Source: Candidatus Shapirobacteria bacterium (GTDB lineage: Bacteria; Patescibacteriota; Microgenomatia; UBA12405; BS750m-G30). From it: a stretch of DNA of 64,000 nucleotides. The stretch lies in assembly GCA_043817235.1 (NCBI GenBank), contig JBDRHA010000006.1:10041-74040 (forward strand), read 5' to 3'. Of this stretch, positions 4-62,408 are shown one piece after another; the first letter of the stretch is position 1, and the number at the start of each line of letters is the position of its first letter. Made by a program: the position numbers and the translations under genes. Under the pieces are notes generated by a model. It saw only the letters and a list, made by a program, of their open reading frames with translations. It had not been told where the DNA came from and did not search any database.

Positions 4-429
4 ATGATTGCCATAGGAGCGCTGGTTCTTTTTTTGCTTTTGCTTTTTGCCAATCAGGTTGTGCCGCGGGTGCTTTTGTATTTAACCCAGGCCACAAATT
101 CGCCGGGCCAGTATTCATTAGCTAATTCTTATGTTTTTGGCTCACCCTTAGTAGCCGCGGCTAATGGCGAGGATAAAATTAGAGTAACGGCTTTTTTGCT
201 TGACGATAAGGGTCGGGGAGTGGCTGGCTCGCAGATTGACTTAAGGGTAGCGCCAGCAAGCCCGCCTACTGGCGAGGCAAGCCCCCAGATTGAAGCAGTT
301 ACACCCGTGACAGACGAATTTGGCCGGGCAGTTTTTGAGATATTTTCCTCTAGCAAGGGCCAGTTTGTGGTATCAGCTCAAGTCGGCGGGTTGGATTTTC
401 CTCAAACGACCACGCTGACTTTTAGGTAA
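4..429 (+). CDS. C-terminal fragment of a secreted protein with a bacterial Ig-like (Big_1/invasin-like) domain; 5' end lies outside the window
   Basis: ORF open from the window edge. The pattern GEDKIRVTAFLLDDKGRGVAGSQIDLRV...TDEFGRAVFEIFSS...VSAQVGG resembles Big_1 beta-sandwich repeats. Assigned from memory of that family, not from a search. Confidence 0.35.
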   Translation: MIAIGALVLFLLLLFANQVVPRVLLYLTQATNSPGQYSLANSYVFGSPLVAAANGEDKIRVTAFLLDDKGRGVAGSQIDLRVAPASPPTGEASPQIEAVTPVTDEFGRAVFEIFSSSKGQFVVSAQVGGLDFPQTTTLTFR

Positions 430-435
430 AAGCCA

Positions 436-766
436 CAGCGCCATTACGAAGGGCGTGTCGTCCCCGCGAAAGCGGGATTTCTTGTCATCCTCGCGAAGGC
501 GGGGATCTATAAAAATATTAATATAGATTCCCGATCAAGTTGGGAATGACACTGTAAATAGTCATCCTGAGCGCAGCCCCGCGAGTCGCGGGGCGCAGCC
601 GAAGGATCTTTTAATTCCGAAGATCTCTCGGCTACGCTCGAGATGACATTGTTTCTGGCAATGGCATTTGGTTGACTTGTCTTTTTGCAGGGGTTTGATT
701 TATCAAGCCCAAAGTTTAATTTCCCCACACACCCGGTGTGGTTCGGGTCACACCGGGTGTGTGTAA
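436..766. repeat. MITE-like palindromic repeat cluster (TGTCAT... family), ending with the hairpin CACACCCGGTGTG-GTTCGGGT-CACACCGGGTGTGTG
   Basis: Direct reading. gtcatcctcgcgaaggcggggatc and gtcatcctgagcgcagccccgcgagtcgcggggcgcagccgaaggatc are units that recur throughout the window. The palindrome is ccccgcgagtcgcgggg. Confidence 0.8.
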
Positions 767-4745: not shown

Positions 4746-5471
4746 TTATTTAATTTTTTTGCCAAAGATATTATAGATCTCTATTTTCCCGGCGCTTTTA
4801 AAAAAATTTTCTCCTAAATTAGCGGCCTTAATCGTGAATTTTATTTCCTGACCTAAATCAGCCAATTTAGGTTGGCTGAAAAACTCGCTTATTTCTCCTT
4901 TGGCTTCCAGATCAGCGGTTTGGGAAACTGTAATTAAAATATTACTGCCGATCTGGCCGGCCAAGCCGGGCTGCGCCTGCTGCTCGGAGAAGCTCACTTC
5001 AGGGATTTGCTGAATAAAAAACGTCGCATAATAATCTTTTTGGGGAAGATCCAAAGGCGCAGTAATTTTCAAAACCAGCTGCTGGCTTTGGTTAGGCTCC
5101 AGAACAAAAGTATCGCCCAAATTTATATTAGCGTTATTAAGTTTAAACTCGGGAAGACCCGTAAAAATATCCGGTTCTTGATATGTAATTTGGCCCTCCT
5201 TCGCCAAGGCTTCGGAGGGTAGAAAAAACCTAATTTCAGTTTGTAAATAGAGCAGGGAAGTGCCTAGGTTTTTTACCTCATAAGCTTGGGTGATGCTTTT
5301 TCCCGGCTGCAAGACAACTTCCAAAAGAGGAGGGGAAAGGGAGAGGGAGAAGCTCTGACCAGCGGCGAGGCAAGCCCTGTTTCCCCTGGCCGCTATAAAG
5401 GATATAACGGTTATAACGATTATAATTTTTATAGCGGCCAACAGGAAAAAAAGGACCAAGAGAGCAAGAGA
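4746..5471 (-). CDS. surface protein B2 ectodomain, paralog of 2058-3008. It has no start codon of its own and is read through in frame from the upstream four-helix-bundle ORF.
   Basis: Signal-peptide-like LALLVLFFLLAAIKIIIVITVISFIAA, then LLEVVLQPGKSITQAYEVKNLG..., comparable to LIKLTAIPPRLEISANPGDVVVDQLKVRNEG of B1. The ORF caller fuses it to 5520-6299. Confidence 0.45.
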   Translation of the reverse strand, partial: SLALLVLFFLLAAIKIIIVITVISFIAARGNRACLAAGQSFSLSLSPPLLEVVLQPGKSITQAYEVKNLGTSLLYLQTEIRFFLPSEALAKEGQITYQEPDIFTGLPEFKLNNANINLGDTFVLEPNQSQQLVLKITAPLDLPQKDYYATFFIQQIPEVSFSEQQAQPGLAGQIGSNILITVSQTADLEAKGEISEFFSQPKLADLGQEIKFTIKAANLGENFFKSAGKIEIYNIFGKKIK

Positions 5472-5519
5472 GGCGGTGCCCGCCTCTCGGCGGTAATTTA
5501 GCCGCTTTTTGAGGAGGTT

Positions 5520-6020
5520 TTCTCGAAAACCCCCATTTTTAACAAAGTCCTCCTCCAGCCAGCGCAGTTTTTGGTCTAAAAGCTGGTTTGTCTGGTTAAT
5601 TAGGCAGATCATGGTGTTGGCTGCGGTTTCTCCGCTGCTCTGGTATTTTTTATAATCGTTATAATTTTTATAACGCTTATATACCAAAGCTCTAACAGCT
5701 TTGGCGCTCGGATCGTCTTTAGCCCAAATTTTCAGCTTTTTTTGACGCAAAAAGTCTTGGTAGTCGTTGAGAAGCTCTTCTAAAGAAGCGCGGGCAACGG
5801 CTAAGAGATTGAGTTTGAGCGCACTACTTTTTTGCAAGTATCCTTCGGCGATGTTCTGTTTGCCGGAGCGTGCGGCCTGAATAAGCTGATCGCTTTGCCG
5901 TGAGAAGTTCTTATAACTTTTATGACGGTTATAATTTTTATAAGGGCCAGAAAAACATTTATCTATGTATTTCTCGCAAAACTCCACCGTAAAATCGTGG
6001 ATTATTTCTGCCTGCTGGAA
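5520..6020 (-). CDS. four-helix-bundle protein (TIGR02436-like; the 23S rRNA intervening-sequence protein family). N-terminus unresolved; the upstream part of the ORF, to 6299, is MITE-derived.
   Basis: SDQLIQAARSGKQNIAEGYLQKSSALKLNLLAVARASLEELLNDYQDFL matches the family hallmark Q..R.a.Si..NIAEG...s.......l.iA.gSl.El (from memory). Tyr/Asn-rich 9-bp repeats lie at both ends. Confidence 0.5.
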
Positions 6021-6039
6021 AAATGGAAGAGAGCGATAC

Positions 6040-6250
6040 CCTCCTTCGCTAAAGCTACGGCGGGCAGGCCCTCCTTCGCGGGCAAGCCCTCCTCTGTCAT
6101 TGCGAGGAGTCCCGATGCTTCTTTTAGTCACCGGGACGACGTGGCAATCCCGTTTTGAGATTGCTTCAGTTTCGTTCGCAATGACATTTTTGTTAACCCC
6201 TGTTGCTGCGGTGTGGTTCGGGTCACGCCCGGTGTGTGATTTATCTTCTT
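6040..6250. repeat. MITE-like repeat cluster embedded in frame in the 5' part of the 4746-6299 ORF
   Basis: tgtcattgcgaggagtcccgatgc ... gtggcaatcccgtttt ... gttcgcaatgacattt, plus the ggtgtggttcgggtcacgcccggtgtgtg hairpin. Confidence 0.75.
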
Positions 6251-6298
6251 TCTGGTCCCTATAACGATTATAATGGTTATAACTGTTATATCCCGTCA

Positions 6299-7072
6299 TC
6301 AGTACCCCGGAACAGCAATATAAGTAATGGCATTTTCATAGTTTCCGGCGGCCTGGGATCCGCTGATATTAACTTTATAAGTAACTGTTGCGGTTGAGGA
6401 GGAAGTGACGGCATCAGAGCTCATCACGATTTGAGCACTTTCCGCGCCTTCTTGGTCAGCAAACTGGCGAAAAAAAGTAGAATCTTCAAAATCTTCCGGA
6501 ATATCATCGCCGCTGATTTTAAAGCCAAAGCCGTAAATAGAATCATTTATCCAGGGATCAGCGTCTGTTTCATCGCAAGAAAGTGTGTCACAAGTAGTAT
6601 CAACTATATCATTGGCTTGCTCAGAGCGGAGCGGATGGTTTTCAAAAGCCAGAACTTGGTACCCGCCGGCGCCACCAGCCGATACATTTAAAGTATTGGT
6701 GTCTGTCGAGGGGGTGCCGGGGACTAGTGAGCCAAAAGCAATGCTTAAATCGGAAATTGTAAAAGTAAAGGGAATAATAGAATGAATATACTGGAACCCG
6801 GCTCTCAGCCAATAGCCGTCGGACTGATAATCGCCGGGGGCAATCTGGCCAATAGTGTCGGTTAGGTTATAGCTGTCGGAGGATTTTTCTCCGCCGCCGA
6901 TGTTCACGTTTCCGCCCTGAATTTTATAGCTATCGGAATCCATATTGGCCGCGTTCACCCTCCGATTCGGAAGGCTCACCCTCCGGATTGGAGGGCTGGC
7001 TGCTATAAAAGATATAATCATTATAATAGTTATAATTTTTATAGCGGCCAACAAGAAATGAAGGCGGGTCAC
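6299..7072 (-). CDS. secreted protein A2, a shorter paralog of A1 (3038-4450)
   Basis: N-terminal MTRLHFLLAAIKIITIIMIISFIAA is encoded by the 57-bp repeat at 7002-7058. The C-terminal domain aligns with the A1 C-terminus. Confidence 0.5.
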   Translation of the reverse strand: MTRLHFLLAAIKIITIIMIISFIAASPPIRRVSLPNRRVNAANMDSDSYKIQGGNVNIGGGEKSSDSYNLTDTIGQIAPGDYQSDGYWLRAGFQYIHSIIPFTFTISDLSIAFGSLVPGTPSTDTNTLNVSAGGAGGYQVLAFENHPLRSEQANDIVDTTCDTLSCDETDADPWINDSIYGFGFKISGDDIPEDFEDSTFFRQFADQEGAESAQIVMSSDAVTSSSTATVTYKVNISGSQAAGNYENAITYIAVPGY

Positions 7073-10571: not shown

Positions 10572-10852
10572 CAAAAAATCACACACTCGGTGTGAATTCG
10601 AACCACACCGGGCGTGTGGGAAGCGGGGTGTCGTCGCGAGAGGTGTTCAGTGTCATTGCGGGGCTCGCAATGACAGTCCAAATAGTCATCCCGAGCGCAG
10701 TCGAGGGATCTTTTGAACCAGAAAAAAGGTCGGTTAGTTTCCAAAGATTCCTCGGCTACGCCCCGCAGTTGCGGGGCTGCGCTCGGAATGACACTGAAAA
10801 CAGATTCCCGATCAGGTTGAGAATGACAAAGGAGGTCAGAGTGAGGCTGTAA
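10572..10852. repeat. MITE-like palindromic repeat cluster
   Basis: cacactcggtgtgaattcgaaccacaccgggcgtgtg hairpin, gtcattgcggggctcgcaatgaca, gtcatcccgagcgcagtcgagggatctttt and cgccccgcagttgcggggctgcgctcggaatgacac. Confidence 0.8.
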
Positions 10853-12051: not shown

Positions 12052-12345
12052 AGTGTCATTGTGAAGGGCGTTGCCATCCCCGCGAAGGCGGGGTTCTCGT
12101 TATTCCCGCGCAGGCCGAGAGTCTCTGTCATCCCTGCGCAGGCGGGGATCTATGAAATAATCATATAGATTCCCGATCAGGTCGGGAATGACAAAGAGGA
12201 TGTCATCCCGAGCGCAGTCGAGGGATCTTTTGAACCAGAAAAAAGGTCGGTTAGTTTCCAAAGATTCCTCGGCTGCGCCCCGCGATTCGCGGGGCTGCGC
12301 TCGGAATGACACTGAAAACAGATTCCCAATCAGGTTGAGAACGAT
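12052..12345. repeat. MITE-like palindromic repeat cluster
   Basis: gccatccccgcgaaggcggggttc, gtcatccctgcgcaggcggggatc, gtcatcccgagcgcagtcgagggatctttt and cgccccgcgattcgcggggctgcgctcggaatgacac. Confidence 0.8.
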
Positions 12346-13420: not shown

Positions 13421-13722
13421 TGAAAGGTTTTCTGGAATTTGTAAGAAAGCAGGGTGTGGTGGGCCTGGCTGTTGGTTTTATTTTAGGCGGCTCGGTTAAA
13501 GAGGTTGTTTCCGCTTTAATTGAAGATATTATTAATCCTGTTTTAGGAGTTTTGCTGGGTTCTACCAAAGGATTAGCTAGTGCCAGTTTAAAGCTTGGGC
13601 CGTTGGAGCTTTTGTGGGGGCATTTTGTTTCTGTTTTAATTGACTTTTTGGTAGTCGCTTTTGTAGTTTATTTTGGAATTAAGGGTTTGGGGTTAGAAAA
13701 GCTGGATAAAAAGAAGAAATAA
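13420..13722 (+). CDS. mscL: large-conductance mechanosensitive channel MscL
   Basis: MKGFLEFVRKQGVVGLAVGFILGGSVKEVVSALIEDIINPVLG...VLIDFLVVAFVVYFGIK is the canonical MscL TM1/TM2. GTG start overlaps the upstream stop. Confidence 0.85.
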   Translation: MKGFLEFVRKQGVVGLAVGFILGGSVKEVVSALIEDIINPVLGVLLGSTKGLASASLKLGPLELLWGHFVSVLIDFLVVAFVVYFGIKGLGLEKLDKKKK

Positions 13723-13766
13723 TTTGAATTTAGGCTTGCTGGCTGATAAAATCAATGGTCTTTTTC

Positions 13767-13840
13767 GCGCCCGTAGCTCAGTTTGGCAGAGCACCTGCCT
13801 TTTAAGCAGTGGGTCGGGGGTTCGAATCCCTCCGGGCGCA
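13767..13840 (+). tRNA. tRNA-Lys (anticodon TTT)
   Basis: Manual cloverleaf: acceptor GCGCCCG/CGGGCGC, D arm GCTC-AGTTTGGCA-GAGC, anticodon loop CTTTTAA, T arm GGGGG-TTCGAAT-CCCTC. No CCA encoded. Confidence 0.8.
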
Positions 13841-13935
13841 CTAAGTTTGCCCCTAATTATTATATAGGACTTTTGGTCATTGACAATATAGGATACTGGT
13901 TATTATTCGTTTCTTAGTGATATACTTTAATCAAA

Positions 13936-16641
13936 ATGACTAAACGAGATTTTAAAAAGCAGGAAAATAAGTGGCAAGTTGTTTGGGAAAAACAGGGCTG
14001 GTATCGGGCTAAGGATTTTGAAAAAAGGAAAAAGAAAAAATATGTTTTAGTTGAGTTTCCTTATCCTTCCGGCGAGGGTTTGCATATCGGCCATGCCTTT
14101 TCTATGACTGGCGCAGATATTTACGCTCGCTTTTGCCGGATGAGTGGTTTTAATGTTCTTTTTCCCATGGGTTGGGATGCTTTTGGCTTGCCTACGGAAA
14201 ATTACGCCATTAAAACCGGCATTTCGCCCCAAAAAGCGACCAAAAAAAACACTGATAATTTTCGGCGGCAGATGAAAAAGCTGGCTTTTTCTTTTGACTG
14301 GAGCCGGGAAATCAATACCACTGATCCGGATTATTATCGCTGGACGCAGTGGATTTTTATTCAGCTTTTTAAAAAAGGTTTGGCCTATAAAGAAGAAAAG
14401 CCAATAAATTGGTGTCCTTCCTGTCGAATTGGGCTGGCCAACGAGGAAGTGATTGACAGCAAGTGCGAGCGATGTGGGGCACAAACTCTTAAAAAGAATA
14501 TTAACCAGTGGATTGTTAAAATCACTGATTATGCTGAGCGCTTAATTTCCGGGCTGGAAGAAACTACTTTTGTTTCTAAAGTAAAAGCGGCTCAAATTAA
14601 CTGGATTGGCAGGAGTGAGGGGGCAAGGGTGAAGTTTAAACTTTCTCAAGACTCGGTCTCAATTTTGCGGTGCTCATCCCGCAGTGGCGGGACTCCTAAA
14701 ATTGAAACCTCGTCAGCTTTCTTGGAGGTTTTTACTACCCGTCCTGATACTTTATGGGGAGCGACTTTTATGGTGCTTTCTCCCGAGCACCGCCTTGTGG
14801 CGGAAATTCTAAATTCTAAATCCGAAGCTCCTGCCTCGCCGGCAGGCGGGCCAAATAAATCAAAAATTTCAAATTCTAATATTGAAGAAATTAAGAAATA
14901 TGTTAATCGGGCGAGGAGAAAGACAGATTTAGAAAGAGCCGAGCTGGAAAAAGAGAAAACCGGGGTCTTTACCGGGATTTATGCCCTAAATCCAGCGAAT
15001 AACGAAAAAATTCCGGTTTGGGTATCGGATTTTGTTTTAAGCACTTATGGTACCGGGGCGATTATGGCCGTGCCCGCTCATGACCAGCGGGATTTTGCTT
15101 TTGCTAAAAAATATAATCTGCCGATTATTCCGGTCATCAAGCCGCCGAAAAAATGGGACTTTGGTAAAGAGCCTTATGTGGATGTGGATCGGGGGGCAAT
15201 GATTAATTCCGGCCCGATTAATGGATTGGCACCGAAAGAGGCGATTAAAAAGACTTTAAATATACTAGAAAAAAAAGAAGCAGGGAAAAAAGCAATTGAT
15301 TATCACTTGCGCGATTGGATTTTTTCCCGCCAGCATTATTGGGGAGAGCCAATACCCATGACTTATTGCGCCAGATGCGGTTGGCAGCCGGTTAAAGAAT
15401 CGGATTTGCCGGTGGAATTGCCAAAGGTAAAAAAATATGAGCCGACTAAAACCGGAGAATCGCCTTTGGCCAATATTAGGGATTGGGTTAATGTTACGTG
15501 CCCAGTTTGTGGAGGTAAAGCTGAGCGGGAAACCGACACCATGCCTAATTGGGCCGGTTCAGATTGGTACTACCTCGCCTATTGCTTCGCAGGCAAACTC
15601 GGAAATTACAAATTACAAATTCCAAAGACCAAACAAATTACAAATTCCAATAACCAAAAACTAAAAAGTTTGGATACTTGTAATTTGGAGCTTGGAAATT
15701 CTCAAAATATTTTTGAGTCTTCAAAAGATGTTTTGAGCCATTGGCTGCCGGTGGATGTTTATGTGGGCGGAGACGAACATAATACTTTGCACCTGCTTTA
15801 TTCCCGGTTTATTTACCAGTTTTTGCGGGATCTGGGAGTAGTGCCCAAATCTATTCCCGAGCCTTATTATTGGCGGCTTTCCCATGGAGTAATTTTAGGG
15901 GCAGACGGGAGTCGTATGAGCAAATCGCGGGGCAACATAGTGGAGCCGGACAAGCTTTGGGAAAAATACGGCGTGGATGCTTTGCGCACTTATATGATGT
16001 TCATGGGCCCGTTTGAGGGAACGATTGTTTGGAATGATAATGCTTTAAAAGGGGTGGTGCGTTTTTTGGATAGATTTTATGATTTCGTAATAACTCCCGA
16101 GGTAGGCCTTGATTCCTCGAGAGCTGCTTCGAGTCCCGGAACTCCCGAGGTAGGCCTTGATTCCTCGGGAGTTGAGGTTGTTGCAATAAATAAGCTTGTT
16201 AATAAAGTTTCTCGTGACTTGTCTAGTTTTCAGTTTAATACGGCAATAGCGGCGATGATGGAATGGCTTAATCAGGCTGAAAAAGAGGCTTGGCAATTAA
16301 AAGACGAAGAAAAAAGAATTTTAATTCAGTTGATTGCACCGTTTGCTCCATATACGTCTGAAGATCTTTGGGAAAATTTGGGAGGAAAAGGGAGTGTGCA
16401 TTGGAGCAAATGGCCAGAAGTGGAAAAAAAGGCTCTTCGAGAAGAAGAGGTGGTTATTGCTGTTCAAGTTAATGGGAAGTTGAGAGCAACAATACAGCTT
16501 AAAACTAAAAGCTTAAAGCTTAAAGCCAGAATAGAAGAAAAAGCAAAGAAAGAAGAAAAAGTCGCAAAATACTTAAAAGGCAAGAAAATAATCAAAACTA
16601 TTTACATCCCGGGAAGATTAATTAACTTTGTGGTAAAGTAA
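13936..16641 (+). CDS. leuS: leucyl-tRNA synthetase
   Basis: HIGH motif PYPSGEGLHIGHAF; KMSKS motif SRMSKSRGN; TTRPDT editing-domain motif. Carries low-complexity and palindromic in-frame insertions (see findings). Confidence 0.95.
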   Translation: MTKRDFKKQENKWQVVWEKQGWYRAKDFEKRKKKKYVLVEFPYPSGEGLHIGHAFSMTGADIYARFCRMSGFNVLFPMGWDAFGLPTENYAIKTGISPQKATKKNTDNFRRQMKKLAFSFDWSREINTTDPDYYRWTQWIFIQLFKKGLAYKEEKPINWCPSCRIGLANEEVIDSKCERCGAQTLKKNINQWIVKITDYAERLISGLEETTFVSKVKAAQINWIGRSEGARVKFKLSQDSVSILRCSSRSGGTPKIETSSAFLEVFTTRPDTLWGATFMVLSPEHRLVAEILNSKSEAPASPAGGPNKSKISNSNIEEIKKYVNRARRKTDLERAELEKEKTGVFTGIYALNPANNEKIPVWVSDFVLSTYGTGAIMAVPAHDQRDFAFAKKYNLPIIPVIKPPKKWDFGKEPYVDVDRGAMINSGPINGLAPKEAIKKTLNILEKKEAGKKAIDYHLRDWIFSRQHYWGEPIPMTYCARCGWQPVKESDLPVELPKVKKYEPTKTGESPLANIRDWVNVTCPVCGGKAERETDTMPNWAGSDWYYLAYCFAGKLGNYKLQIPKTKQITNSNNQKLKSLDTCNLELGNSQNIFESSKDVLSHWLPVDVYVGGDEHNTLHLLYSRFIYQFLRDLGVVPKSIPEPYYWRLSHGVILGADGSRMSKSRGNIVEPDKLWEKYGVDALRTYMMFMGPFEGTIVWNDNALKGVVRFLDRFYDFVITPEVGLDSSRAASSPGTPEVGLDSSGVEVVAINKLVNKVSRDLSSFQFNTAIAAMMEWLNQAEKEAWQLKDEEKRILIQLIAPFAPYTSEDLWENLGGKGSVHWSKWPEVEKKALREEEVVIAVQVNGKLRATIQLKTKSLKLKARIEEKAKKEEKVAKYLKGKKIIKTIYIPGRLINFVVK

Positions 16642-16642
16642 G

Positions 16643-16753
16643 TTATTTCTTCTTGTTAGAATTCTTTTTGATCAGGCTGGCAATTGCGCTTAGAATCGCC
16701 GCAATTCCCAAGACTTTAAGAATTCCCGAACAGCATTTTTTCTTTTTCGCCAT
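16643..16753 (-). CDS. possible 36-aa small hydrophobic peptide (MAKKKKCCSGILKVLGIAAILSAIASLIKKNSNKKK)
   Basis: Found by manual reverse-strand reading; ATG at 16751-16753, TAA at 16643-16645. Single TM-like helix with charged ends. Below the ORF-track cutoff. Confidence 0.2.
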   Translation of the reverse strand: MAKKKKCCSGILKVLGIAAILSAIASLIKKNSNKKK

Positions 16754-16778
16754 TTATATTTTTTAAACTAATAATAGA

Positions 16779-16801
16779 TTGTCATTGCGTTCGCAATGAC
16801 A
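16779..16801. repeat. minimal MITE terminus palindrome TGTCATTGCG-TT-CGCAATGACA
   Basis: Perfect 10-bp inverted repeat. These are the same termini as the larger elements, with nothing between them. Confidence 0.8.
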
Positions 16802-16863
16802 ATAATTTCATGATATCAAAAAGAAAAGAGAACGGACTGCCACAAAACTATTTTAACATATTC

Positions 16864-16893
16864 TTGACAAGAATGAATGTGCGATTGTACAAT
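16864..16893 (+). promoter_or_regulatory. sigma-70-like promoter for the RHH-VapC module: TTGACA, 18-nt spacer, TACAAT
   Basis: TTGACA at 16864-16869 and TACAAT at 16888-16893. GGAGG at 16901-16905 lies 6 nt before the ATG at 16912. Confidence 0.55.
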
Positions 16894-16911
16894 GGTATCG
16901 GAGGATAAGAA

Positions 16912-17178
16912 ATGAATTATGTAGCAACCAATATCCGTTTTCCGGAAGAGGACTGGAAGTATTTTAAAATCAAGGCCTTGGAGGCTAGGAAAAGTTTGGC
17001 TGCTTGGATCAGAGATTCTTTAAGAGAAAAAGAGGGCTTAACTAAAAAAACTGTCAAAAGCCAAGAGAAAGATTCTTTTTGGGAATTTCCTGAACTTTTG
17101 AAAAAGAATAAAATTAGAGATAAGGCGCCCAAAAATCTTTCTTTAAATCTTGATCAATATCTTTATGGCCAAGAATAA
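16912..17178 (+). CDS. vapB: ribbon-helix-helix (CopG-like) antitoxin, partner of the downstream PIN toxin
   Basis: NIRFPEEDWKYFKIKALEARKSLAAWIRDSL follows the beta-strand-then-helix pattern of RHH antitoxins. Overlaps the PIN gene start. Confidence 0.55.
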   Translation: MNYVATNIRFPEEDWKYFKIKALEARKSLAAWIRDSLREKEGLTKKTVKSQEKDSFWEFPELLKKNKIRDKAPKNLSLNLDQYLYGQE

Positions 17179-18927: not shown

Positions 18928-19307
18928 TAATCGACACGAGTATTGTTATAGATCATCTTCGACAGAAAACTAAAATTAGATCTTATTTAGTAAAACTCGT
19001 CGAAAAACATCCTAAAAACGAACTAGCAATATCAGTTCTGAGTGTTCAAGAGCTATATGAAGGCAGGAGCACGAGGGATGTAAATCAGGAAAAAATACTT
19101 TTGGCGACAATAAGTCCCTTAAGAATCTTGCCCTATAATTATGAAACAGCTAAAATGGCGGGAGAAATAGCGCGTGACTTGGCGGAAACGATTCAATTTG
19201 CAGATGCGGCAATTGCGGCGACAGCCATCGTTAACGGTGGGCAATTAGCCACTTTAAATAAGAAAGATTTTCAGAAAATACGAGATTTAGATTTTTTTAA
19301 TTTTTAA
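18921..19307 (+). CDS. vapC: PIN-domain toxin VapC
   Basis: MVVIDTSIVIDHL...SVQELYEG...FADAAIAATAIVNGGQLATLNKKDFQKI. Confidence 0.75.
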   Translation: MVVIDTSIVIDHLRQKTKIRSYLVKLVEKHPKNELAISVLSVQELYEGRSTRDVNQEKILLATISPLRILPYNYETAKMAGEIARDLAETIQFADAAIAATAIVNGGQLATLNKKDFQKIRDLDFFNF

Positions 19308-22300
19308 ACTTTCAGCTTTTTGGATTTTTTGCCCTCCGGTTTTGAGCAAAATCTCTTTTTCAAACTCCTTTGGCCAGGAAGGAGCAAAAATAATTATTTT
19401 ATCGGTTAATTCTAAATTTTCTTTTCTTCGCAGCGTCTGGACTTCTCTAATTAAATCGCGCGCTTTACCCTCTTTTTTTAATTCTGGGGTTAATTTTGTA
19501 TTGAGCTTTATGCTTTTAGCTAATTTTATTTTTTTAATATTCAGCTCATCTAAAAGAAGATAGTCGATATTTAGCTTCTTAAAAAAGGAAGCGTTTGGCG
19601 AATACAAGGCGGAAAGCGGTTGCTTGACGGCAATATTTTTTGCTTTGCGCAAGGCATGACCTTCGGTAACTTCGTTTCTTAATTGAGCCATTGCTTTTTC
19701 TAAATCCAAATTTAAATATTTCTTTTCTATTTTTGGCCAAGACTGGAGATGAATGGAGTCTTTAACTTTTAATTTATTTTTATTTCCCTGAAGGTTCTGC
19801 CAGACGGTTTCCGGCAAAAAAGGAATAAAGATACCCAAAAGCAAGGAAAGCTGCTCCAGGCAATGATAGAGGGTGCTAAAACAAGCTTCGCGGTCCCTCG
19901 TGTTTTGGCTGTTGGGCGAGAGCCGCTCGCGGGAGCGGCGCACATACCAAAGGGAAAGATCTTCTATAAAGTTTTCTAAGCTTTTTAAGGCGTTTTGATG
20001 ACGAAAACGATTCAGTTCGCCTTGGGCCTCTTTTTTGGTGTTTTCCAGCCGAGAGAGAATCCAAGCGTCAAGCGGGCTAGTGTCATTGCGAGGAGTCGCT
20101 GAGGAGGCGTGGAAATCCAGTTTCCGTGTCATTGCGAGGATCGGAGCGACGTGGCAATCTTTCCAACGGGATCGCCACGCCCCCGACGTCACGTCGTGGG
20201 ACTCGCGATGACAAGGACACCAGCCATTTAAATTCGCATAAGTAGCTAAAAAGCGAAAAGAGTTCCAATAAAGGAAAATAAATCTTCGCCTGATTTCATC
20301 GGCAATAGAATAGCCAAAATTAAGGCCAAGATGGGGCCTTTGCCGGCAGTATAGCCAGCGCATCGTGTCTACTCCCATTTTTTCGACAGCCTCATCATAA
20401 GGAATGCCGTTTTTCTTGGTCTTGCTCATTCGCTCGCCTTTTTCGTCGCGCACTTCGCCGTGGTTAAGAACACTCTTGTATGGAGCCATATTTTCAAAAA
20501 TTACTCCGTAAACGAGCATCGAATAAAACCAGAGCCGGATTTGCTCAATCATTTCCAAAACTAAGTCAGCCGGGAACCACTTTTGCCAGTATTTTTTGTC
20601 TTCAAAATATTTTAAGGTAGAAAAAGGAACGACGCCTGCGTCCAGCCAGCAATCGCCCACGTCCAAAATTCGGTTTACGGGCTTACCGCACTGGGGGCAT
20701 TTGATTTTAATTTCATCAACCCAGGGTCGGTGCAAAGAGGGGAGTTTGTCGACTAAATTTTGGTTTACTGCCAATTTTTTTAGTTCTTTTTTAGAGCCGA
20801 TTACGGTTAGTTTTTTGCACTTAAGGCATTCATAAAAAGGCAAAGATAAGCCGTAAAAGCGCTTGCGGCTGATCATCCAGTCTCCCATATTATTGAGCCA
20901 GCCCTGCATTCTTTTTCCGGCAAATTTCGGAATCCAGTTGGCCGTGGCCGCGGCCTTTTTTAGCTCGGGCTTGATTTTGGTGCAATTAATAAACCAATTT
21001 TCTTCTAAGCGAAATAAAGTTTTTGCGCCGCACCGCCAGCAGTGGGGGTAAGAATGGGTAATGGTTTCCGTTTTATAAAGTAGATTTTTGTCTTTTAAAT
21101 AGTTAATTACTTCTTTTCCCACTTCGTGGGCGTATTTATTAGTTAAACTACCGTAGCCCGGGCCAAATTGGCCGGCTTCCGTTAAAGGAGAAAGAGCGGG
21201 TGCGCCCAAGCTTTTTCCCAGGAGAAAATCGTCTTCTCCACAGCCCGGAGCAATATGAACGATTCCGGTTCCTTCATCTGGATTAGCCAGCTTCCATTTT
21301 ACGACAGAATGCTTAATATTTTTTTGAGCGGGAATATCATAAAGCGATTCGTATTCTTGACCTAATAAATCTTTGGCGGCAACGGAGATTTGGTTTTTCA
21401 AGCCCAAGCGGTCGGCCGACTCTTTAGCCAAATACCAGTATTCGACTCCGCTGTCATCCCGAGCGTAGTCGAGGGATCTTCTTTTTTTTGTCATTGCGAG
21501 CGTAGCGAAGCAATCCCGAGTGGAATCTGTAATTTCAACGGGATCGCCATGTCCCGCAGCTGCGGGACTCGCGATGACACGATTCTTCGCGACGACACGG
21601 ACTTTCACATACTCATATTCTGGATTGATCGCCAAAAGGACGTTAGCAGATAAAGTCCAGGGGGTTGTAGTCCAGGCTAAGAAATACTCATTCTTTTTAT
21701 TTTTTAAAGGGAATTTAACATGAACGGAAAAATCTTGAATATCTTTATAGCCTTCGGCCTGTTCATGGCGGGATAAACCGGTTTCGCACCTCGGGCACCA
21801 GGTGGTGGCGGATTTTGCCTTATAAAGTAATTCTTTTTGGCGGCAGATTTGCAAAAATTTCCAAATATATAAATTATTAGTTTCCGAATAAGTATAATAG
21901 GAATTATCCCAATCCATAAAATAGCCCAAGCGCTTGGACTGCTCGGCTTGCAAGGCAGCATAAGTTTTGACCCGGTCTTGGCATGATTGGGTAAATTTAG
22001 CTAAACCATATTTTTCAATATCTTTTTTGGAATTAAAGCCTAAGGCTTTTTCCACCTCTACTTCAACCCAAAGTCCCTGGCAGTCAAACCCGTTTTGAAA
22101 TCTTTGCTGATAGCCTTGGGCGTTTTTGTATTTTTGATAAAGGTCTTTTAAGGTTCGGCCCCAGGCATGGTGCGCACCCATGGGGTTATTGGCAGTAATT
22201 GGGCCGTCAATAAAAGAAAAGCGCTTTTTAGAATTTTTATTTTTGGCTAAATATTTTTCAAGCAAGCCGTTTTTTTCCCAAAACTTAAGAATCTTTTTTT

Positions 22301-22370
22301 CGTTTTGAACAAAATCAAATTGAGCTTCGGGTAAAGCAAAATAATTTTCTTTCTTTTTCTTAGTTTTCAT
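19287..22370 (-). CDS. ileS: isoleucyl-tRNA synthetase carrying two in-frame MITE insertions
   Basis: HxGH-type motif NPMGAHHAWG; KMSKS-like ERMSKTKKNG; Zn-finger-like WCPRCETGL; CP1 editing region. The ORF is continuous across repeats at 20084-20222 and 21437-21600. Confidence 0.95.
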   Translation of the reverse strand: MKTKKKKENYFALPEAQFDFVQNEKKILKFWEKNGLLEKYLAKNKNSKKRFSFIDGPITANNPMGAHHAWGRTLKDLYQKYKNAQGYQQRFQNGFDCQGLWVEVEVEKALGFNSKKDIEKYGLAKFTQSCQDRVKTYAALQAEQSKRLGYFMDWDNSYYTYSETNNLYIWKFLQICRQKELLYKAKSATTWCPRCETGLSRHEQAEGYKDIQDFSVHVKFPLKNKKNEYFLAWTTTPWTLSANVLLAINPEYEYVKVRVVAKNRVIASPAAAGHGDPVEITDSTRDCFATLAMTKKRRSLDYARDDSGVEYWYLAKESADRLGLKNQISVAAKDLLGQEYESLYDIPAQKNIKHSVVKWKLANPDEGTGIVHIAPGCGEDDFLLGKSLGAPALSPLTEAGQFGPGYGSLTNKYAHEVGKEVINYLKDKNLLYKTETITHSYPHCWRCGAKTLFRLEENWFINCTKIKPELKKAAATANWIPKFAGKRMQGWLNNMGDWMISRKRFYGLSLPFYECLKCKKLTVIGSKKELKKLAVNQNLVDKLPSLHRPWVDEIKIKCPQCGKPVNRILDVGDCWLDAGVVPFSTLKYFEDKKYWQKWFPADLVLEMIEQIRLWFYSMLVYGVIFENMAPYKSVLNHGEVRDEKGERMSKTKKNGIPYDEAVEKMGVDTMRWLYCRQRPHLGLNFGYSIADEIRRRFIFLYWNSFRFLATYANLNGWCPCHRESHDVTSGAWRSRWKDCHVAPILAMTRKLDFHASSATPRNDTSPLDAWILSRLENTKKEAQGELNRFRHQNALKSLENFIEDLSLWYVRRSRERLSPNSQNTRDREACFSTLYHCLEQLSLLLGIFIPFLPETVWQNLQGNKNKLKVKDSIHLQSWPKIEKKYLNLDLEKAMAQLRNEVTEGHALRKAKNIAVKQPLSALYSPNASFFKKLNIDYLLLDELNIKKIKLAKSIKLNTKLTPELKKEGKARDLIREVQTLRRKENLELTDKIIIFAPSWPKEFEKEILLKTGGQKIQKAESLKIKKI
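20084..20222. repeat. MITE pair inserted in frame in ileS (encodes ...CPCHRESHDVTSGAWRSRWKDCHVAPILAMTRKLDFHASSATPRNDTSPLDA...)
   Basis: gtcattgcgaggagtcgc ... gtcattgcgaggatcggagcgacgtggcaatcttt ... cgtgggactcgcgatgaca. The host frame is not broken. Confidence 0.85.
21437..21600. repeat. MITE pair inserted in frame in ileS (encodes ...ASPAAAGHGDPVEITDSTRDCFATLAMTKKRRSLDYARDDSG...)
   Basis: gtcatcccgagcgtagtcgagggatc, gtcattgcgagcgtagcgaagcaatcc and cccgcagctgcgggactcgcgatgaca. Confidence 0.85.
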
Positions 22371-22493
22371 CCTCCTTATTTTACCCCAATTTCCTTAAAA
22401 AATCTGCCGATATTCAACCTCGGGAGTTGATTACCCTTGCAACATCGGGAATCTGAAAAAAGTTGAACACAGGGCGCGTGCGAGTCAAATATT

Positions 22494-32869: not shown

Positions 32870-32892
32870 ATTTAAGGACTAAATTCTTTAGG

Positions 32893-33068
32893 AGATCCTT
32901 CGGCTACGCTCAGGATGACGAAGAGAGTGTCATTGCGAGAGCTTTGACTTGCACACACCCGGTGTGGTTCGGGTCACACCGGGTGTGTGGCGATCCCGTT
33001 GAGATTGCCATGTCAGTCGCCCCGTAGCTGCAAGGCTCCTTCCTCGCAATGACAGGGAGTTGTTGGTA
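32893..33068. repeat. MITE-like repeat cluster with the cacacccggtgtggttcgggtcacaccgggtgtgtg hairpin
   Basis: ccttcggctacgctcaggatgac; a full element tgtcattgcgagagc...ttcctcgcaatgaca with the hairpin nested inside. Confidence 0.8.
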
Positions 33069-36836: not shown

Positions 36837-37068
36837 GTGGGGGTTGATAGTCATCCCGAGTGCATCCCGAGGGATCTTTGGAATTAAGAAATCTCTCCTT
36901 TAACAAGATCCCTCGGGATGCACTCGGGATGACGAGAAACATGTCATTGCGAGCCCCAAAGGGGCGTGGCAATCTTGCTTTCCCAATGGGATTGCCGCGT
37001 CAGTCGCTTCGCTTCCTTCCTGGCAATGACACTCTTTCTGTCATCCTCGTGAAGGCGAAGGATCTATA
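36837..37068. repeat. MITE-like repeat cluster
   Basis: gtcatcccgagtgcatcccgagggatcttt, its inverted partner, and the full element tgtcattgcgagccccaaaggggcgtggcaatcttgc...cctggcaatgaca. Confidence 0.8.
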
Positions 37069-39669: not shown

Positions 39670-40320
39670 ATGCTAGTTTTAGGCTTGGGCAATCCGGAAA
39701 AAGAATATCAAGATAATCGCCATAATACGGGCAAGCAGTTTTTAGACTTTTTAGACCAAAATAACGAATTAAATTGGCAAAAAAGAAAAGACTTGCTTTG
39801 TTTTTTGGCCAAGAAAGATGATTTATATTTGGCCAAATCTCTAACTTATATGAATGATTCGGGTCAAGCTGCTCAGGCTTTAGTAAAAAAATTAAAAGTA
39901 AAATTAAATAATTTTTATTTAGCTCATGATGAGCTGGATTTAAAATTAGGGGAGTATAAAATTAGCTTTGGCAAAAGTTCGGCTCTTCATAAAGGAGTTT
40001 TATCAGTAGAGCGGGAGCTAAAAAGTAAAGATTTCTGGCGCGTTAGGATTGGGGTAGATAATCGCGATTCAGAAAACCGGATTGCGGGGGAAAGATATGT
40101 TTTGCAGGATTTTCGATCAGAGGAAGAAAAAAAGCTAAAAAAAGTATTTGAGGAAATCATTGTGTCATTGCGGGGGTATTGTCATCCTGAGCGAAGTCGA
40201 AGGATCTTTCCGAAGATTCCTCGATCCCGCAGCTGCGGGACTCAAGATGACTATTTAAACTGTCATTCCGAGCGCAGCCCCGCTACTGCGGGGCGTAGCC
40301 GAGGGATCTTTGAGAATTAA
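39670..40320 (+). CDS. pth: peptidyl-tRNA hydrolase with about 45-aa C-terminal extension encoded by MITE repeats
   Basis: MLVLGLGNPEKEYQDNRHNTGKQFLD is the Pth N-terminal signature with catalytic His. Residues after about 170 (GYCHPERSRRIFPKIPRSRSCGTQDDYLNCHSERSPATAGRSRGIFEN) are the translation of the repeat units at 40168-40317. Confidence 0.9.
   Translation: MLVLGLGNPEKEYQDNRHNTGKQFLDFLDQNNELNWQKRKDLLCFLAKKDDLYLAKSLTYMNDSGQAAQALVKKLKVKLNNFYLAHDELDLKLGEYKISFGKSSALHKGVLSVERELKSKDFWRVRIGVDNRDSENRIAGERYVLQDFRSEEEKKLKKVFEEIIVSLRGYCHPERSRRIFPKIPRSRSCGTQDDYLNCHSERSPATAGRSRGIFEN
40168..40317. repeat. MITE-like repeats forming the 3' end of pth
   Basis: gtcatcctgagcgaagtcgaaggatcttt, cccgcagctgcgggactcaagatgac and tgtcattccgagcgcagccccgctactgcggggcgtagccgagggatctttg. 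Confidence 0.8.
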
Positions 40321-40353
40321 GTAGGGATTTCCCTCTGGTAAAATTATTATTAA

Positions 40354-40644
40354 ATGCAAAAACAGTTCTTTGTTTATATCTTAAGCAATTTCAAAAGAAA
40401 CGTTCTTTGCATTGGGGTTACCAGTAATTTAAGGAAAAGGGTTTGGGAACACAGGCAAGATTTAGTTCAAGGATTTACCAAAAAATATCAAGTTCATGAC
40501 CTGCTCTATTACGAAGTGTTTACTGATTCTATGCTGGCGATTGCCAGAGAAAAACAGCTAAAAAAATGGAACAGAAGAAAGAAAAATGCCTTAATTGCGA
40601 CGACCAATCCTAAACTTAAAGATCTTTATTCAATAATTTCTTAG
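40354..40644 (+). CDS. GIY-YIG nuclease superfamily protein (UPF0213-like small standalone GIY-YIG)
   Basis: FFVYILSNFKRNVLCIGVTSNLRKRVWEH contains the GIY/YIG motifs and the conserved Arg and Glu. 96 aa. Confidence 0.8.
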   Translation: MQKQFFVYILSNFKRNVLCIGVTSNLRKRVWEHRQDLVQGFTKKYQVHDLLYYEVFTDSMLAIAREKQLKKWNRRKKNALIATTNPKLKDLYSIIS

Positions 40645-40790
40645 ATTGACAAAAGATCTTTCGACTTCGCTCGGGATGACAGGAAACAATGTCATTCCGA
40701 GCATAGTCGAGGAATCTTTGGCGATTAAGCGAAGTATTTTTCTGATTTACGAAAGATCCTTCGGCTACGCTCAGGATGACTTATGGATCA
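40641..40790. repeat. MITE-like repeat cluster
   Basis: ctttcgacttcgctcgggatgaca, tgtcattccgagcatagtcgaggaatcttt and ccttcggctacgctcaggatgac. Confidence 0.8.
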
Positions 40791-43307: not shown

Positions 43308-43560
43308 TAGTCATTCCGAGCTTCGAGACCAGTGTCATTGCGAGTCCCGATGGTTCTGTTAGCCATCGGGGCGCGGCAATCCCGCTGGGATTACGGGTTA
43401 CGCACGGGATCGTTCCGCTACGCTCAGGATGGCGATTTAAACTGTCATTCCGAGCGCAGCCCCGCAGTAGCGGGGCGCAGTCGAGGAATCTTTGGCAATT
43501 AAGCGAAGTATTTCTCTGATTTACGAAAGACCCTTCGGCTACGCTCAGGATGACGATCTC
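43308..43560. repeat. MITE-like repeat cluster
   Basis: gtcattccgagcttcgagacc, tgtcattgcgagtcccgatggttc...ggcgcggcaatcccgctgggatta, tgtcattccgagcgcagccccgcagtagcggggcgcagtcgaggaatcttt and ccttcggctacgctcaggatgacga. Confidence 0.8.
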
Positions 43561-45347: not shown

Positions 45348-45600
45348 GAAATTCCCAGAGTCATTCCGAGCGAAGTCCCGAGTACTCGGGACGAAGTCGA
45401 GGAATCTTTAGGAGTAAAAAGATCCTTCGGCTGCGCCCCGTGAATCGCGGGGCTGCGCTCAGGATGACAGGAAACAATGTCATTGCGAGCCCCGCAGCTG
45501 CGGGGGAAGTAATCCCAGGCGGAATATGCAATCCCGTTGGATAGATTGCTTCGTTAGTCACTAGCGTTTCTTCCTCGCAATGACAAAGGAGGTTGAGATT
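45348..45600. repeat. MITE-like repeat cluster including a full 113-bp element with perfect 12-bp TIRs (45476-45590)
   Basis: tgtcattgcgagccccgcagctgcggggg ... ttcctcgcaatgaca; also gtcattccgagcgaagtcccgagtactcgggacgaagtcgaggaatcttt. Confidence 0.85.
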
Positions 45601-46789: not shown

Positions 46790-47233
46790 TTATTTCAATT
46801 CTACTTTCGCTCCGGCTTCACCTAATTTTTTCTGCGCTTCTTCGGCCTGATCTTTTTTCACATCTACCAAAACTTCTGCCGGAAGTTTTTCCGTCATGTC
46901 TTTAGCTTCTTTTAAGCCCAAATCCGGCTTAATTTCCCGTAAAGCTTTAATGACATTAATTTTATTAGCTCCGGTTTCAGTCAAAACTACAGTAAACTGA
47001 GTTTTTTCTTCAGCGGGAGCGCCGCCGGCATCTTGCCCGCCTGCCGATGAGGCAGCCACTGGAGCCGCGGCCATGGCTTGCACCCCGAATTTTTCTTCCA
47101 AGCCTTTGACCAGATCAGATAATTCCAGAACAGATAATTCTCCGATTTGATCTAAAATTTTGGATAATTTTGGATCTAGGTTAACAGAAATTTTTTCCTC
47201 TTGTTTTTCTTCTTTCTTTTTTTCTTTTGCCAT
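46790..47233 (-). CDS. rplL: 50S ribosomal protein L7/L12
   Basis: N-terminal dimerisation helix and C-terminal domain [54 protein letters not shown]. Confidence 0.95.
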
Positions 47234-47925: not shown

Positions 47926-48014
47926 TTAAGTTTTTGGCTTTAAGCTAATTACCGCCTCGGTAAGATTTTTAAGTCCCGCAGCTGCGGGAGACTTACTGTC
48001 TTGGGCTAGACTTA

Positions 48015-53662: not shown

Positions 53663-53743
53663 GAAATTTTAACCCTATTTTATCTACGATCGTGAAGAAA
53701 ATGAGGGAGATTATTAAAATCAAAGCCAAATTATTCTGAAAGT

Positions 53744-62396: not shown

Positions 62397-62408
62397 TTTT
62401 AGATTAAA

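Follow-up and report, generated by a model that had tools for sequence, protein, structure and literature searches.

The leuS gene of a Candidatus Shapirobacteria MAG, a member of the CPR with a tiny genome of 41% GC, carries four short segments within its coding sequence, and the question raised by this locus is where such additions come from and how the encoded leucyl-tRNA synthetase (LeuRS) accommodates them. We examined the gene within a 64-kb stretch of the MAG, referred to here as the window, and compared it with LeuRS genes of other lineages. The analysis makes it probable that the inserts are palindromic selfish DNA that the protein tolerates in permissive loops.

The leuS coding sequence (13936..16641, plus strand) is an intact ORF encoding a 901-residue LeuRS, which matched T. 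thermophilus LeuRS (1h3n) with an E value of 3e-197. The product contains the Pfam domains PF00133, PF13603, and PF08264. Both the HIGH motif (residues 50-53) and the KMSKS-type motif RMSKS (residues 660-664) are intact, the editing motifs TTRPDT/AHD are undamaged, and the catalytic and editing motif columns are invariant in the LeuRS alignment. The features expected of a bacterial LeuRS, a class Ia enzyme with CP1 editing, anticodon-binding, and C-terminal domains, a T-rich region, and a conserved Asp, are all present, while a counterpart of the leucine-specific domain of T. thermophilus (approximately residues 582-636) is missing. Each of the four inserts keeps the reading frame and is free of stops in the frame used. 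When positions 13500-17000 were scanned with Rfam, the upstream tRNA was the sole match, and together with terminator and promoter scans of the same interval this revealed no Rfam family or terminator-like site within the inserts.

The AlphaFold model of the protein has a mean pLDDT of 84.6 and superposes on solved bacterial LeuRS structures with TM scores of 0.77 to 0.84. The four inserts are the main low-confidence stretches of this otherwise confident model. Residues with pLDDT below 50 were confined to 250-258, 560-588 (in insert 3), 724-726 and 730-743 (both in insert 4), plus three residues at 540-542, and the blocks around 291-310, in the region of insert 2, had values of 54 to 67. The inserts are modeled as low-pLDDT coil between confident secondary-structure elements, so that a surface location and compatibility with the fold are predicted for them.

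An earlier note on this DNA had described the segments as in-frame insertions, and comparison with reference LeuRS sequences supported in-frame, lineage-variable additions. Against T. thermophilus LeuRS all four remain unaligned or fall in gaps, and their occupancy among 119 homologs is low. We then compared the gene by codon alignment with its closest relatives, L001, L003, and L004, at 68 to 71% identity. None of the three has insert 1 or insert 2. Insert 3 is present, in diverged form, only in the closest homolog, L001, and the insert-4 hairpin occurs once in L001 and is missing from L003 and L004. Codon alignment with orthologs lacking the inserts revealed no recognizable target-site duplications, the boundaries being blurred by divergence at 68 to 71% identity.

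Insert 1 (14650..14714, plus strand), identified by inverted-repeat search, DNA folding, homolog alignment, and pLDDT, is a nested palindrome whose product, approximately residues 241-260, lies where the CP1 editing domain begins. Its outer arms (14650-14666 and 14698-14714) are AT-rich and enclose the GC core TCCCGCAGTGGCGGGA at 14677-14692. The core letters reported before, tcccgcagtggcgggactc, are found at 14677-14695 and do encode the peptide LSQDSVSILRCSSRSGGTPKIETSS. The DNA fold of the insert had a z of -3.2, with 0 of 200 shuffles as good, and the core by itself also gave -3.2. A search of the window with the core pattern TCCCGCAGNNGCGGGA returned nine strand-hits at five loci, insert 1 and four others, versus 0.01 expected. 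Among these loci, the core palindrome TCCCGCAGCTGCGGGA stands alone at 47974..47989 (no strand assigned), where it has AT-rich flanks and matches insert 1 in architecture; further copies at 1695-1710 and 40225-40240 lie inside larger elements of the window, which we term the GTCAT type from their outer arms.

These larger elements are nested-palindrome repeats at about 19 to 27 loci, making up approximately 4% of the window sequence and mostly intergenic, with conserved outer arms of the form GTCATYSYGAG...CTCRSRATGAC. A GIY-YIG ORF adjoins a cluster of them. Two composite elements of this type are intragenic, lying in frame within ileS (19287..22394, minus strand; element sizes 85-131 nt). 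The first is at 20082..20212 (minus strand), and the corresponding query residues 720-764 are unaligned to IleRS 8c8w; the second is at 21453..21578 (minus strand), with the core TCCCGCAGCTGCGGGA at 21552-21567 and query residues 259-299 unaligned. An nhmmer profile built from 17 window elements recovered approximately 27 element loci in the window and, at E<=10, had no match in leuS (13936-16641). The suggestion that insert 1 contains a decayed MITE core is therefore overstated: only its 16-19-nt core palindrome resembles the window elements, and the profile does not place it among them. We rejected the leuS inserts as MITE members because the profile finds nothing in the gene and the inserts have no GTCAT-type outer arms. 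Shared terminal inverted repeats, by which MITEs are recognized, are present on the ileS elements and not on the leuS inserts, and no transposon terminal inverted repeat of a known type was found on the latter. Among ten large ORFs of the window scanned against Pfam, no transposase or RAYT was identified. The earlier note's suggestion that aminoacyl-tRNA synthetase genes of this genome may be hot spots for in-frame insertions draws here on leuS and ileS of the window and on the LeuRS family.

The core of insert 2 (14827..14853, plus strand; 81% GC) encodes APASPAGGP at residues 298-306 and sits within an older AT-rich low-complexity stretch, with direct repeats on either side, AAATTCTAAATTCTAA (14804-14819) and AAATTTCAAATTCTAA (14864-14879). 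The hairpin claimed here is present as sequence, with cctgcctcgccggcagg and a 6-bp stem CCTGCC/GGCAGG, but its fold does not stand out from shuffled sequence (z -0.9, equaled by 37 of 200 shuffles), and we rejected it as a significant hairpin in its own right. A 21-mer of this insert has three copies in the window versus 0.00 expected, and the two other loci are both coding. One, a 19/21-nt match to the core at 47035..47055 (minus strand), falls in the Ala/Gly-rich hinge of an L7/L12-like ORF (46790..47233, minus strand) in the same reading frame. Because its relatives lie in coding Ala/Ser/Gly-rich linkers, insert 2 may have arisen as a low-complexity, linker-like gain and not as a mobile element.

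Insert 3 (15601..15705, plus strand) is of low complexity and 28% GC and encodes residues 556-590. The repeat described in the earlier note was recovered by TRF as a 25-nt unit in two copies at 92% (15608-15658). The insert also contains a long AT-rich hairpin with arms at 15634-15643 and 15678-15687, pairing CAAATTACAA with TTGTAATTTG, and the fold z was -2.4 overall and -3.7 for the inner part.

Insert 4 (16092..16174, plus strand), in a loop of the anticodon-binding domain, consists of two 34-nt hairpin modules spaced 48 nt apart, each built as AACTCCCGAGG, a 12-nt loop, and then CCTCGGGAGTT. Unit A (16092-16126) has a degenerate right arm, while unit B (16140-16174) has a perfect 11-bp stem (16140-16150 with 16163-16173); the fold z values were -3.9 and -5.9, the latter that of unit B. 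The segment had been described as a perfect, or near-perfect, 48-bp tandem duplication encoding TPEVGLDSS twice. The peptide is indeed encoded twice, once per unit, and the 26-mer quoted as repeated does occur twice, but the perfect repeat extends over only 28 nt (16092-16119 equals 16140-16167), the 48-nt units are identical at only 35 of 48 positions, and TRF did not call the duplication. The hairpin nature of each unit had been overlooked.

Hairpins of the insert-4 family recur in other leuS genes. In L006, two 40-nt copies of identical sequence lie at a distance of 56 codons, L106 has a family hairpin at site 2, and the one in L167 is at site 4 and is read in another frame. Outside leuS, no second full insert-4 hairpin was found in the 64-kb window, where only a 13-nt arm match was detected at 22418-22430 (BLAST E 0.07), which counts against mobility. 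We also searched 933 kb of fetched loci, which say nothing of genome-wide spread because they are mostly leuS loci, with a generic hairpin pattern; of the five hits, four were leuS hairpins described here and the fifth was in L126. The insert-4 region is the fastest-evolving part of leuS in the comparison of the window gene with L001, at 0.47 to 0.58 nucleotide identity versus 0.72 overall. Across the stem, 5 of 11 pairs changed on both sides, with 96% of cells paired, no one-sided changes, and no G-T/G-U intermediates in 55 cells, a count that rests on two to five sequences since no relatives above 71% identity were found in genome and metagenome scans. The 'VSPERCQNDSSEV' palindrome of L165, L166, and L006 was left out of the stem-pair count because its arms are one codon out of register with the window hairpin.

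The same sites are used throughout the LeuRS family. Inserts of at least 8 residues in 160 LeuRS genes cluster at approximately residues 237-261, 293-314, 406-412, 482, 587, and 740, and the window leuS occupies four of these six hot spots. Among unique inserts of these LeuRS genes, which are mostly from the CPR, 28 of 132 had a fold z below -3, versus 4 of 272 same-gene controls (Fisher p 3e-11; Mann-Whitney p 3e-7). This enrichment peaks at sites 1 and 2, where z was below -2 for 11 of 18 and 9 of 18 inserts, respectively. Arms of the GTCAT type were found in frame in 15 inserts at 11 LeuRS loci. The 24 loci labeled non-CPR had only two inserts in total, neither of them palindromic. LeuRS length in the CPR ranges from 800 to more than 1000 residues among close relatives.

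On the reading that we favor, palindromic selfish DNA in permissive loops, the four segments would be short hairpin-forming DNA like that scattered through the host and other CPR genomes, among them GC-rich core palindromes flanked by AT-rich sequence, long hairpins rich in AT, and the 34-nt 'CACCTC..AGG' module. Such pieces would enter leuS by insertion, copying, or local duplication. To survive, a piece would need a length that is a multiple of three, an open frame as used, and a surface loop able to tolerate 9 to 35 extra disordered residues, presumably translated and close to neutral for the enzyme. This filter of frame and loop is proposed as the reason that the same few loops are hit repeatedly across lineages. 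Later duplication of pieces could then have produced insert 4 and the 25-nt repeat of insert 3, and nested insertion of a GC core into older AT-rich tracts could have produced inserts 1 and 2, followed by decay. The palindromy of insert 4 would be upheld at the DNA level, by re-insertion, by gene conversion from other copies, or by intrastrand template switching, rather than by selection on the peptide.

Much of this could in principle come about without any mobile piece, if surface loops had grown by replication slippage and local duplication and the hairpins were incidental to AT-rich repeats and to GC-rich Ala/Gly/Pro/Ser codons. Slippage can account for much of insert 3, with its 25-nt tandem repeat, and it would also be in keeping with insert 4 as a local duplication and with insert 2, which lies between AT-rich direct repeats, has no significant hairpin, and includes a 21-mer that matches, in the same frame, a natural flexible hinge encoded by the L7/L12-like ORF. 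Only 1 of 22 inserts at the hot spot near residue 482 is palindromic, so LeuRS loops do also grow in the ordinary way. As the explanation of the leuS inserts we nonetheless regard it as unlikely. Inverted repeats are not produced by slippage, the GC palindrome of insert 1 is shared with four other window loci, and insert folding strongly exceeds that of composition-matched shuffles and same-gene controls. Moreover, full GTCAT-type elements are found in frame at the same sites of other LeuRS genes and in the ileS of the host, and the pairing of the insert-4 stem is perfect despite five double changes.

The last of these observations, compensatory change in a stem that evolves faster than its gene, could also reflect selection on the hairpins as mRNA or DNA structures, acting for instance in ribosome pausing at domain borders, in mRNA stability or processing, or as protein or replication signals, with the peptide as a passenger. 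Several lineages share a hairpin at one site, and insert 1 is positioned at the border of the catalytic and editing domains; both observations agree with such a role, which we nevertheless consider very unlikely. DNA palindromy fits better than RNA selection because G-T/G-U intermediates are absent from the 55 cells. The two next-closest relatives (L003 and L004) are entirely without these hairpins, hairpin families, positions, and even reading frames vary by lineage, the inserts match no Rfam family or terminator-like site, and the first insert-4 copy is already in decay. Watson-Crick-only compensatory evolution in a presumably translated hairpin would offer a natural case in which DNA-level upkeep can be separated from RNA-level selection.

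We consider it highly improbable that the inserts are adaptive protein additions, such as linkers or new interaction surfaces found specifically in CPR LeuRS. The recurrent use of the same loops would be expected of such additions, and nucleotide identity with L001 is unusually high (0.89 to 0.92) over the right-hand portion of insert 3 and the neighboring 'GNSQNIF' stretch, a motif common to several homologs. Insert peptides, however, show no conservation among close relatives, neither insert 1 nor insert 2 occurs elsewhere, the inserts are predicted to be disordered, and their composition follows the DNA repeat rather than any protein motif. An assembly or binning artefact, whether a chimeric insertion or a false insert-4 duplication, is suggested by the exact LeuRS protein being found on one contig only (P0001; one member, one contig) but is exceedingly improbable, because the four segments are in frame without stops, the perfect repeat in insert 4 spans only 28 nt before its copies diverge and so is probably shorter than typical assembly k-mers, the single insert-4 hairpin and the related version of insert 3 are both seen in L001 (ENA) and in L002 (NCBI), two separately made assemblies of the nearest relative, and analogous inserts occur across dozens of independent assemblies.

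Among known systems, palindromic selfish DNA in leuS most resembles the Rickettsia palindromic elements (RPEs), which are summarized in PMC10969869 (after Ogata et al. 2000) as approximately 100-150 bp, in frame in unrelated housekeeping genes, with conserved peptides thought to be compatible with the protein fold. The likeness lies in palindromic and at least partly repeated DNA in frame in intact housekeeping genes of a reduced-genome bacterium. The leuS pieces are, in contrast, 27-105 nt and heterogeneous, and their CPR/Patescibacteria host and size set them apart from RPE-1 to RPE-10; only the ileS elements are comparable to RPEs in size. The GC clusters of yeast mitochondria include in-frame var1 insertions that cause protein length polymorphism, are otherwise mostly intergenic, and have TSD-like terminal repeats AG/TAG (PMC8811140). 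They too are short GC-rich palindromes with AT-rich flanks in an AT-rich genome, linked to recombination and occasionally found in coding genes, but they are organellar, AG/TAG-type repeats were not seen here, and the base composition of the Shapirobacteria host is less extreme than that of yeast mtDNA. In Magnusiomyces mitochondria, the 'byp' elements (Lang et al. 2014, as described in PMC8811140) are likewise short, GC-cluster-derived inserts within protein-coding genes and are untranslated, with frame not required. Bypassing would be unnecessary for the leuS inserts, unlike these, because all keep the frame and the frame used has no stop.

REP/BIME, ERIC, Correia, and MITE-like repeats resemble the mostly intergenic nested-palindrome repeats of the window with their conserved outer arms, whereas the leuS inserts have no such arms and are missed by the family profile, and a RAYT or parent IS was not identified. 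REPs are extragenic by definition, while intragenic in-frame cases of ERIC are known (PMC10969869); the leuS and ileS copies are intragenic and in this respect unlike REP/BIME. Quasi-palindrome correction through intrastrand template switching turns imperfect inverted repeats into perfect ones (PMC3820800). It predicts two-sided Watson-Crick changes as in the insert-4 stem and could copy neighboring sequence in inverted orientation, which would fit the outer arms that insert 1 has. It is, however, a mechanism rather than an element family, and here a candidate only, since re-insertion or gene conversion would leave the same pattern. Nothing relevant came up in our literature searches for MITE, REP, or palindromic insertions in the CPR/Patescibacteria or for the arm sequences of the elements as text strings.

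If the leuS inserts are palindromic selfish DNA, selfish DNA inside protein-coding genes, so far known mainly from Rickettsia and yeast mitochondria, would extend to the CPR, a very large and poorly understood share of bacterial diversity. Palindromic inserts would offer a concrete reason why CPR LeuRS proteins differ so widely in length, and a sizeable share of lineage-specific LeuRS inserts would be palindromic DNA rather than protein innovation, which bears on annotation, on phylogenetics with aminoacyl-tRNA synthetase markers, and on how 'CPR-specific insertions' are read. The family analysis also provides a usable map of insertion-tolerant loops.

A bolder proposal, which we put forward as conjecture and regard as quite unlikely, is that the small palindromes of the GC-core type and the 34-nt 'CACCTC..AGG / CCT..GAGGTG' hairpin form a distinct class of very small mobile CPR hairpins that repeatedly enter the same loops of essential aminoacyl-tRNA synthetases in any open frame, their palindromy being actively restored at the DNA level. 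If this were true, such tiny hairpins would be a bacterial counterpart of mitochondrial GC clusters and, throughout the radiation, a major unrecognized cause of differences in protein length. In a stronger variant of this conjecture, the hairpins would act in mRNA via pausing or bypass.

The leuS open reading frame (13936..16641, +) encodes a 901-aa leucyl-tRNA synthetase (LeuRS) that matches T. thermophilus LeuRS at an E value of 3e-197 and is 100% identical to an annotated Candidatus Shapirobacteria MAG protein on a 146.7-kb contig. The HIGH, KMSKS-type, and editing-site residues occupy invariant columns in a 95-sequence alignment, and the AlphaFold model (mean pLDDT 84.6, pTM 0.81) can be superposed on solved structures of bacterial LeuRS enzymes (TM scores 0.77-0.84). 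Judging from these invariant motifs and the confident, superposable model, leuS looks functional. The leucine-specific domain is missing from this LeuRS and its clade (window ~15904-15915, aa 657-660), and T. thermophilus LeuRS residues ~582-636 have no counterpart in it. The leuS start is preceded, ~95 nt upstream, by a tRNA gene (13767-13840, +; Rfam RF00005, 69.6 bits). In the closest relative, two GIY-YIG genes are found upstream of leuS in one assembly (L001; 1581-1817 and 2057-2293) and one in the other (L002).

The earlier note had described four in-frame insertions in leuS; the observation is real, with corrections needed, and the interpretation is right in part. The inserts are lineage-specific. 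Relative to T. thermophilus LeuRS, inserts 1 (14650..14714) and 2 (14827..14853) are gaps, insert 3 (15601..15705) separates two blocks that align, and only part of insert 4 (16092..16174) aligns. The four are the sole low-occupancy runs of the window LeuRS in an alignment with 119 homologs, and all are stop-free in the frame used by the window leuS. The three most similar genes (L001/L002, L003, and L004; 68-71% identity, gene order conserved) were compared at the DNA level. In the codon alignment with L001, L003, and L004, inserts 1 and 2 were present in the window only, a diverged version of insert 3 was also found in L001, and the insert-4 hairpin was single in L001 and missing in L003 and L004. 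The LeuRS model has pLDDT values below 50 at residues 250-258, 560-588, 724-726, and 730-743, as well as at the three residues 540-542, and of 54-67 at residues 291-310. Given this low pLDDT at the insert segments, all four are predicted to be disordered loops amid confident elements. Inserts 1 and 2 fall inside the region (query about 225-458) that is spanned by crystal constructs of the isolated CP1 editing domain, insert 3 in the catalytic body, and insert 4 between two anticodon-binding-domain helices.

The string claimed for insert 1, tcccgcagtggcgggactc, is located at 14677-14695, and a larger nested palindrome with AT-rich outer arms of 17 nt surrounds this core at 14650-14714 (fold z -3.2, with 0/200 shuffles equally good). 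The TCCCGCAGNNGCGGGA pattern was found at five window loci (1695, 14677, 21552, 40225, and 47974) versus 0.01 expected; that at 47974 is a standalone hairpin having the insert-1 GC core with AT-rich flanks. At site 1 of L148, another of the fetched leuS loci, TCCGCCAGCTGGCGGA with AT-rich flanks matches the architecture of insert 1. The GC content is 41% for the window, 65% for the insert-1 core, 81% for the insert-2 core, 28% for insert 3, and 59% for insert 4.

Growth of the loop by slippage only is a plausible explanation for insert 3, and perhaps for insert 2. TRF recovered the repeat reported for insert 3 as two copies of a 25-nt unit (92%), and the insert also contains an AT-rich hairpin. 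The right arm of that hairpin and the start of the adjoining GNSQNIF (15664-15714, aa 577-593) have 0.89-0.92 nucleotide identity to L001 (window-L001 mean 0.73), which places them with the best-conserved nucleotide stretches between the two, despite lying within an insert predicted to be disordered. The 6-bp hairpin noted in insert 2 exists, but alone it is not significant (z -0.9). The insert-2 21-mer, CTGCCTCGCCGGCAGGCGGGC, has two more near-copies in the window, with none expected. One, at 47035-47055, matches the GC-rich core at 19/21 nt and lies in the Ala/Gly-rich hinge of an L7/L12-like ORF (46790-47233, -), in the same reading frame (AASSAGGQ versus PASPAGGP in insert 2); the other near-copy is at 260-280 (-). 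The likeness to the hinge could stem from an element common to both, from templated copying, or from convergence at the codon level.

Insert 4 had been called a perfect 48-bp tandem duplication. The quoted 26-mer was found twice, but the perfect repeat covers only 28 nt, its copies being spaced 48 nt apart, and 35/48 positions are identical between the 48-nt units. Both units are hairpins in which a 12-nt loop joins AACTCCCGAGG to CCTCGGGAGTT; the second has a perfect 11-bp stem (z -5.9), and the first has two mismatches in the right arm. Related hairpins occur in L001 at the same site and in the same frame, in L167 at the same site in another reading frame (HLQGG...HLGGE), and in L106 at site 2; an akin 43-nt palindrome encoding VSPERCQNDSSEV is present in L165, L166, and L006. 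When five hairpins of this family were aligned, the 11-bp stem was paired in 96% of cells, with five pairs altered on both sides, zero one-sided changes, and no G-T intermediates. The covariation score was matched by 0/500 shuffles and collapsed once partners were slid. No part of leuS is less conserved between the window and L001 than the insert-4 region (0.47-0.58 identity versus 0.72 overall), yet none of its stem pairs is broken. Because the region is so poorly conserved, yet changes only on both sides of the stem and with no pair broken, and also because G-T intermediates are absent and the hairpin turns up elsewhere in leuS and in a second reading frame, these five sequences tentatively point to renewal of the palindrome at the DNA level. 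Candidate routes are re-insertion, conversion from other copies, and quasi-palindrome template switching (PMC3820800). Two rival explanations of the inserts are a selected RNA or DNA structure and an adaptive peptide; selection at the level of the peptide or the RNA fold fits the insert-4 palindromy less well than does DNA-level renewal.

Nested palindromes of one repeat family, for which no name was found in the literature searched, also occur in the window. Their outer arms are GTCATYSYGAG...CTCRSRATGAC, and within these they have CCCCGC-N4-GCGGGG hairpins as well as a hairpin of the form CGAGGGATC...GATTCCTCG. There are 17 clean copies (53-131 nt), and a profile detected some 27 element loci spread over about 19 regions, mainly intergenic and ~4% of the window, for example at 1681-1949, 10652-10792, 12202-12310, 32882-33053, 36850-37030, 40181-40780, 43310-43554, 45360-45584, 47810-47874, 53462-53656, and 62112-62267. 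The 10-mer GATTCCTCG[AG] forms one arm of the central hairpin in these GTCAT-type elements and is shared with insert 4 (14 occurrences in the window, two within insert 4). With zero matches to the profile in leuS at E<=10, membership of the leuS inserts in this family was ruled out; insert 1 and the elements have just a small GC core in common, and the proposal that it holds a decayed MITE core was not borne out. The leuS inserts also fail as strict MITEs, being without shared terminal repeats, a recognisable target-site duplication, or a known transposase.

Full-length composite GTCAT-type palindromic elements do lie in frame in ileS (19287..22394, -), at 20082-20212 (-) and 21453-21578 (-), where they yield peptides containing ...CFATLAMTKKRRSLDYARDD... 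and ...ILAMTRKLDFHASSATPRND.... Neither stretch aligns with the solved IleRS 8c8w, and therefore the remark that ileS likewise carries in-frame insertions was correct. An element-like palindrome (6096-6185) is contained in a long ORF and putative gene (4746-6335, -), whose only match is a weak, sub-threshold one to the 23S rRNA intervening-sequence protein family, and a small GIY-YIG ORF (62403-62666, +) adjoins the element cluster at 62112-62267.

Across 160 leuS loci, chiefly CPR, inserts 8 aa or longer, counted in non-core columns, cluster at six hot spots, at about window residues 237-261, 293-314, 406-412, 482, 587, and 740, four of which are occupied in the window. To assess hairpin potential, the fold of each insert was scored against dinucleotide shuffles of that insert, and length-matched segments from the same genes served as controls. 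Values of z<-3 were obtained for 28/132 unique inserts versus 4/272 controls (Fisher p 3e-11; Mann-Whitney p 3e-7), the signal being highest at sites 1 and 2, with none at site 482. The 24 loci labelled non-CPR had two inserts, neither palindromic. GTCAT-type arms were in frame in 15 inserts from eleven loci, including L139, L090, L094, L066, L096, and L006. The L006 leuS (CAYSLZ010000004.1), with three such inserts and two identical 40-nt hairpin copies (VSPERCQNDSSEV) 56 codons apart, is the most heavily invaded of the leuS genes inspected. In eight Paceibacteria-type loci (L029, L039, L056, L068, L111, L122, L154, and L158), the LeuRS match extends over 3.8-4.0 kb and is never one ORF, being split or interrupted by something large; in L029 the region consists of ORFs of 496, 275, and 813 aa.

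We propose that short hairpin-forming DNA may enter leuS or be copied there, and that the survivors would be copies keeping the frame, stop-free in the frame used, and within permissive loops, which would give rise to the hot spots. The inserted pieces would later duplicate, take nested inserts, and decay; we infer that they are mobile, translated, and neutral. The last rival is that the inserts are artefacts of assembly. The phenomenon is of a known type, the closest case being the Rickettsia palindromic elements (reviewed in PMC10969869). In-frame GC clusters in var1 of yeast mitochondria come close as well, and a more exotic relation is seen in the translational-bypass byps (both PMC8811140). 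No paper on such elements in CPR/Patescibacteria was found in the literature searched, which is not proof of novelty; interest would be greater if the small hairpins were a distinct mobile class across the radiation.

Elsewhere in the window, the stop-to-stop ORF at 53705-56215 (+) has the ArgRS domains Arg_tRNA_synt_N, tRNA-synt_1d, and DALR, together with an N-terminal B3_4 domain (residues 82-213). B3_4 is normally a domain of the PheRS beta subunit, and the ORF may represent either a fusion or two genes that share one frame.
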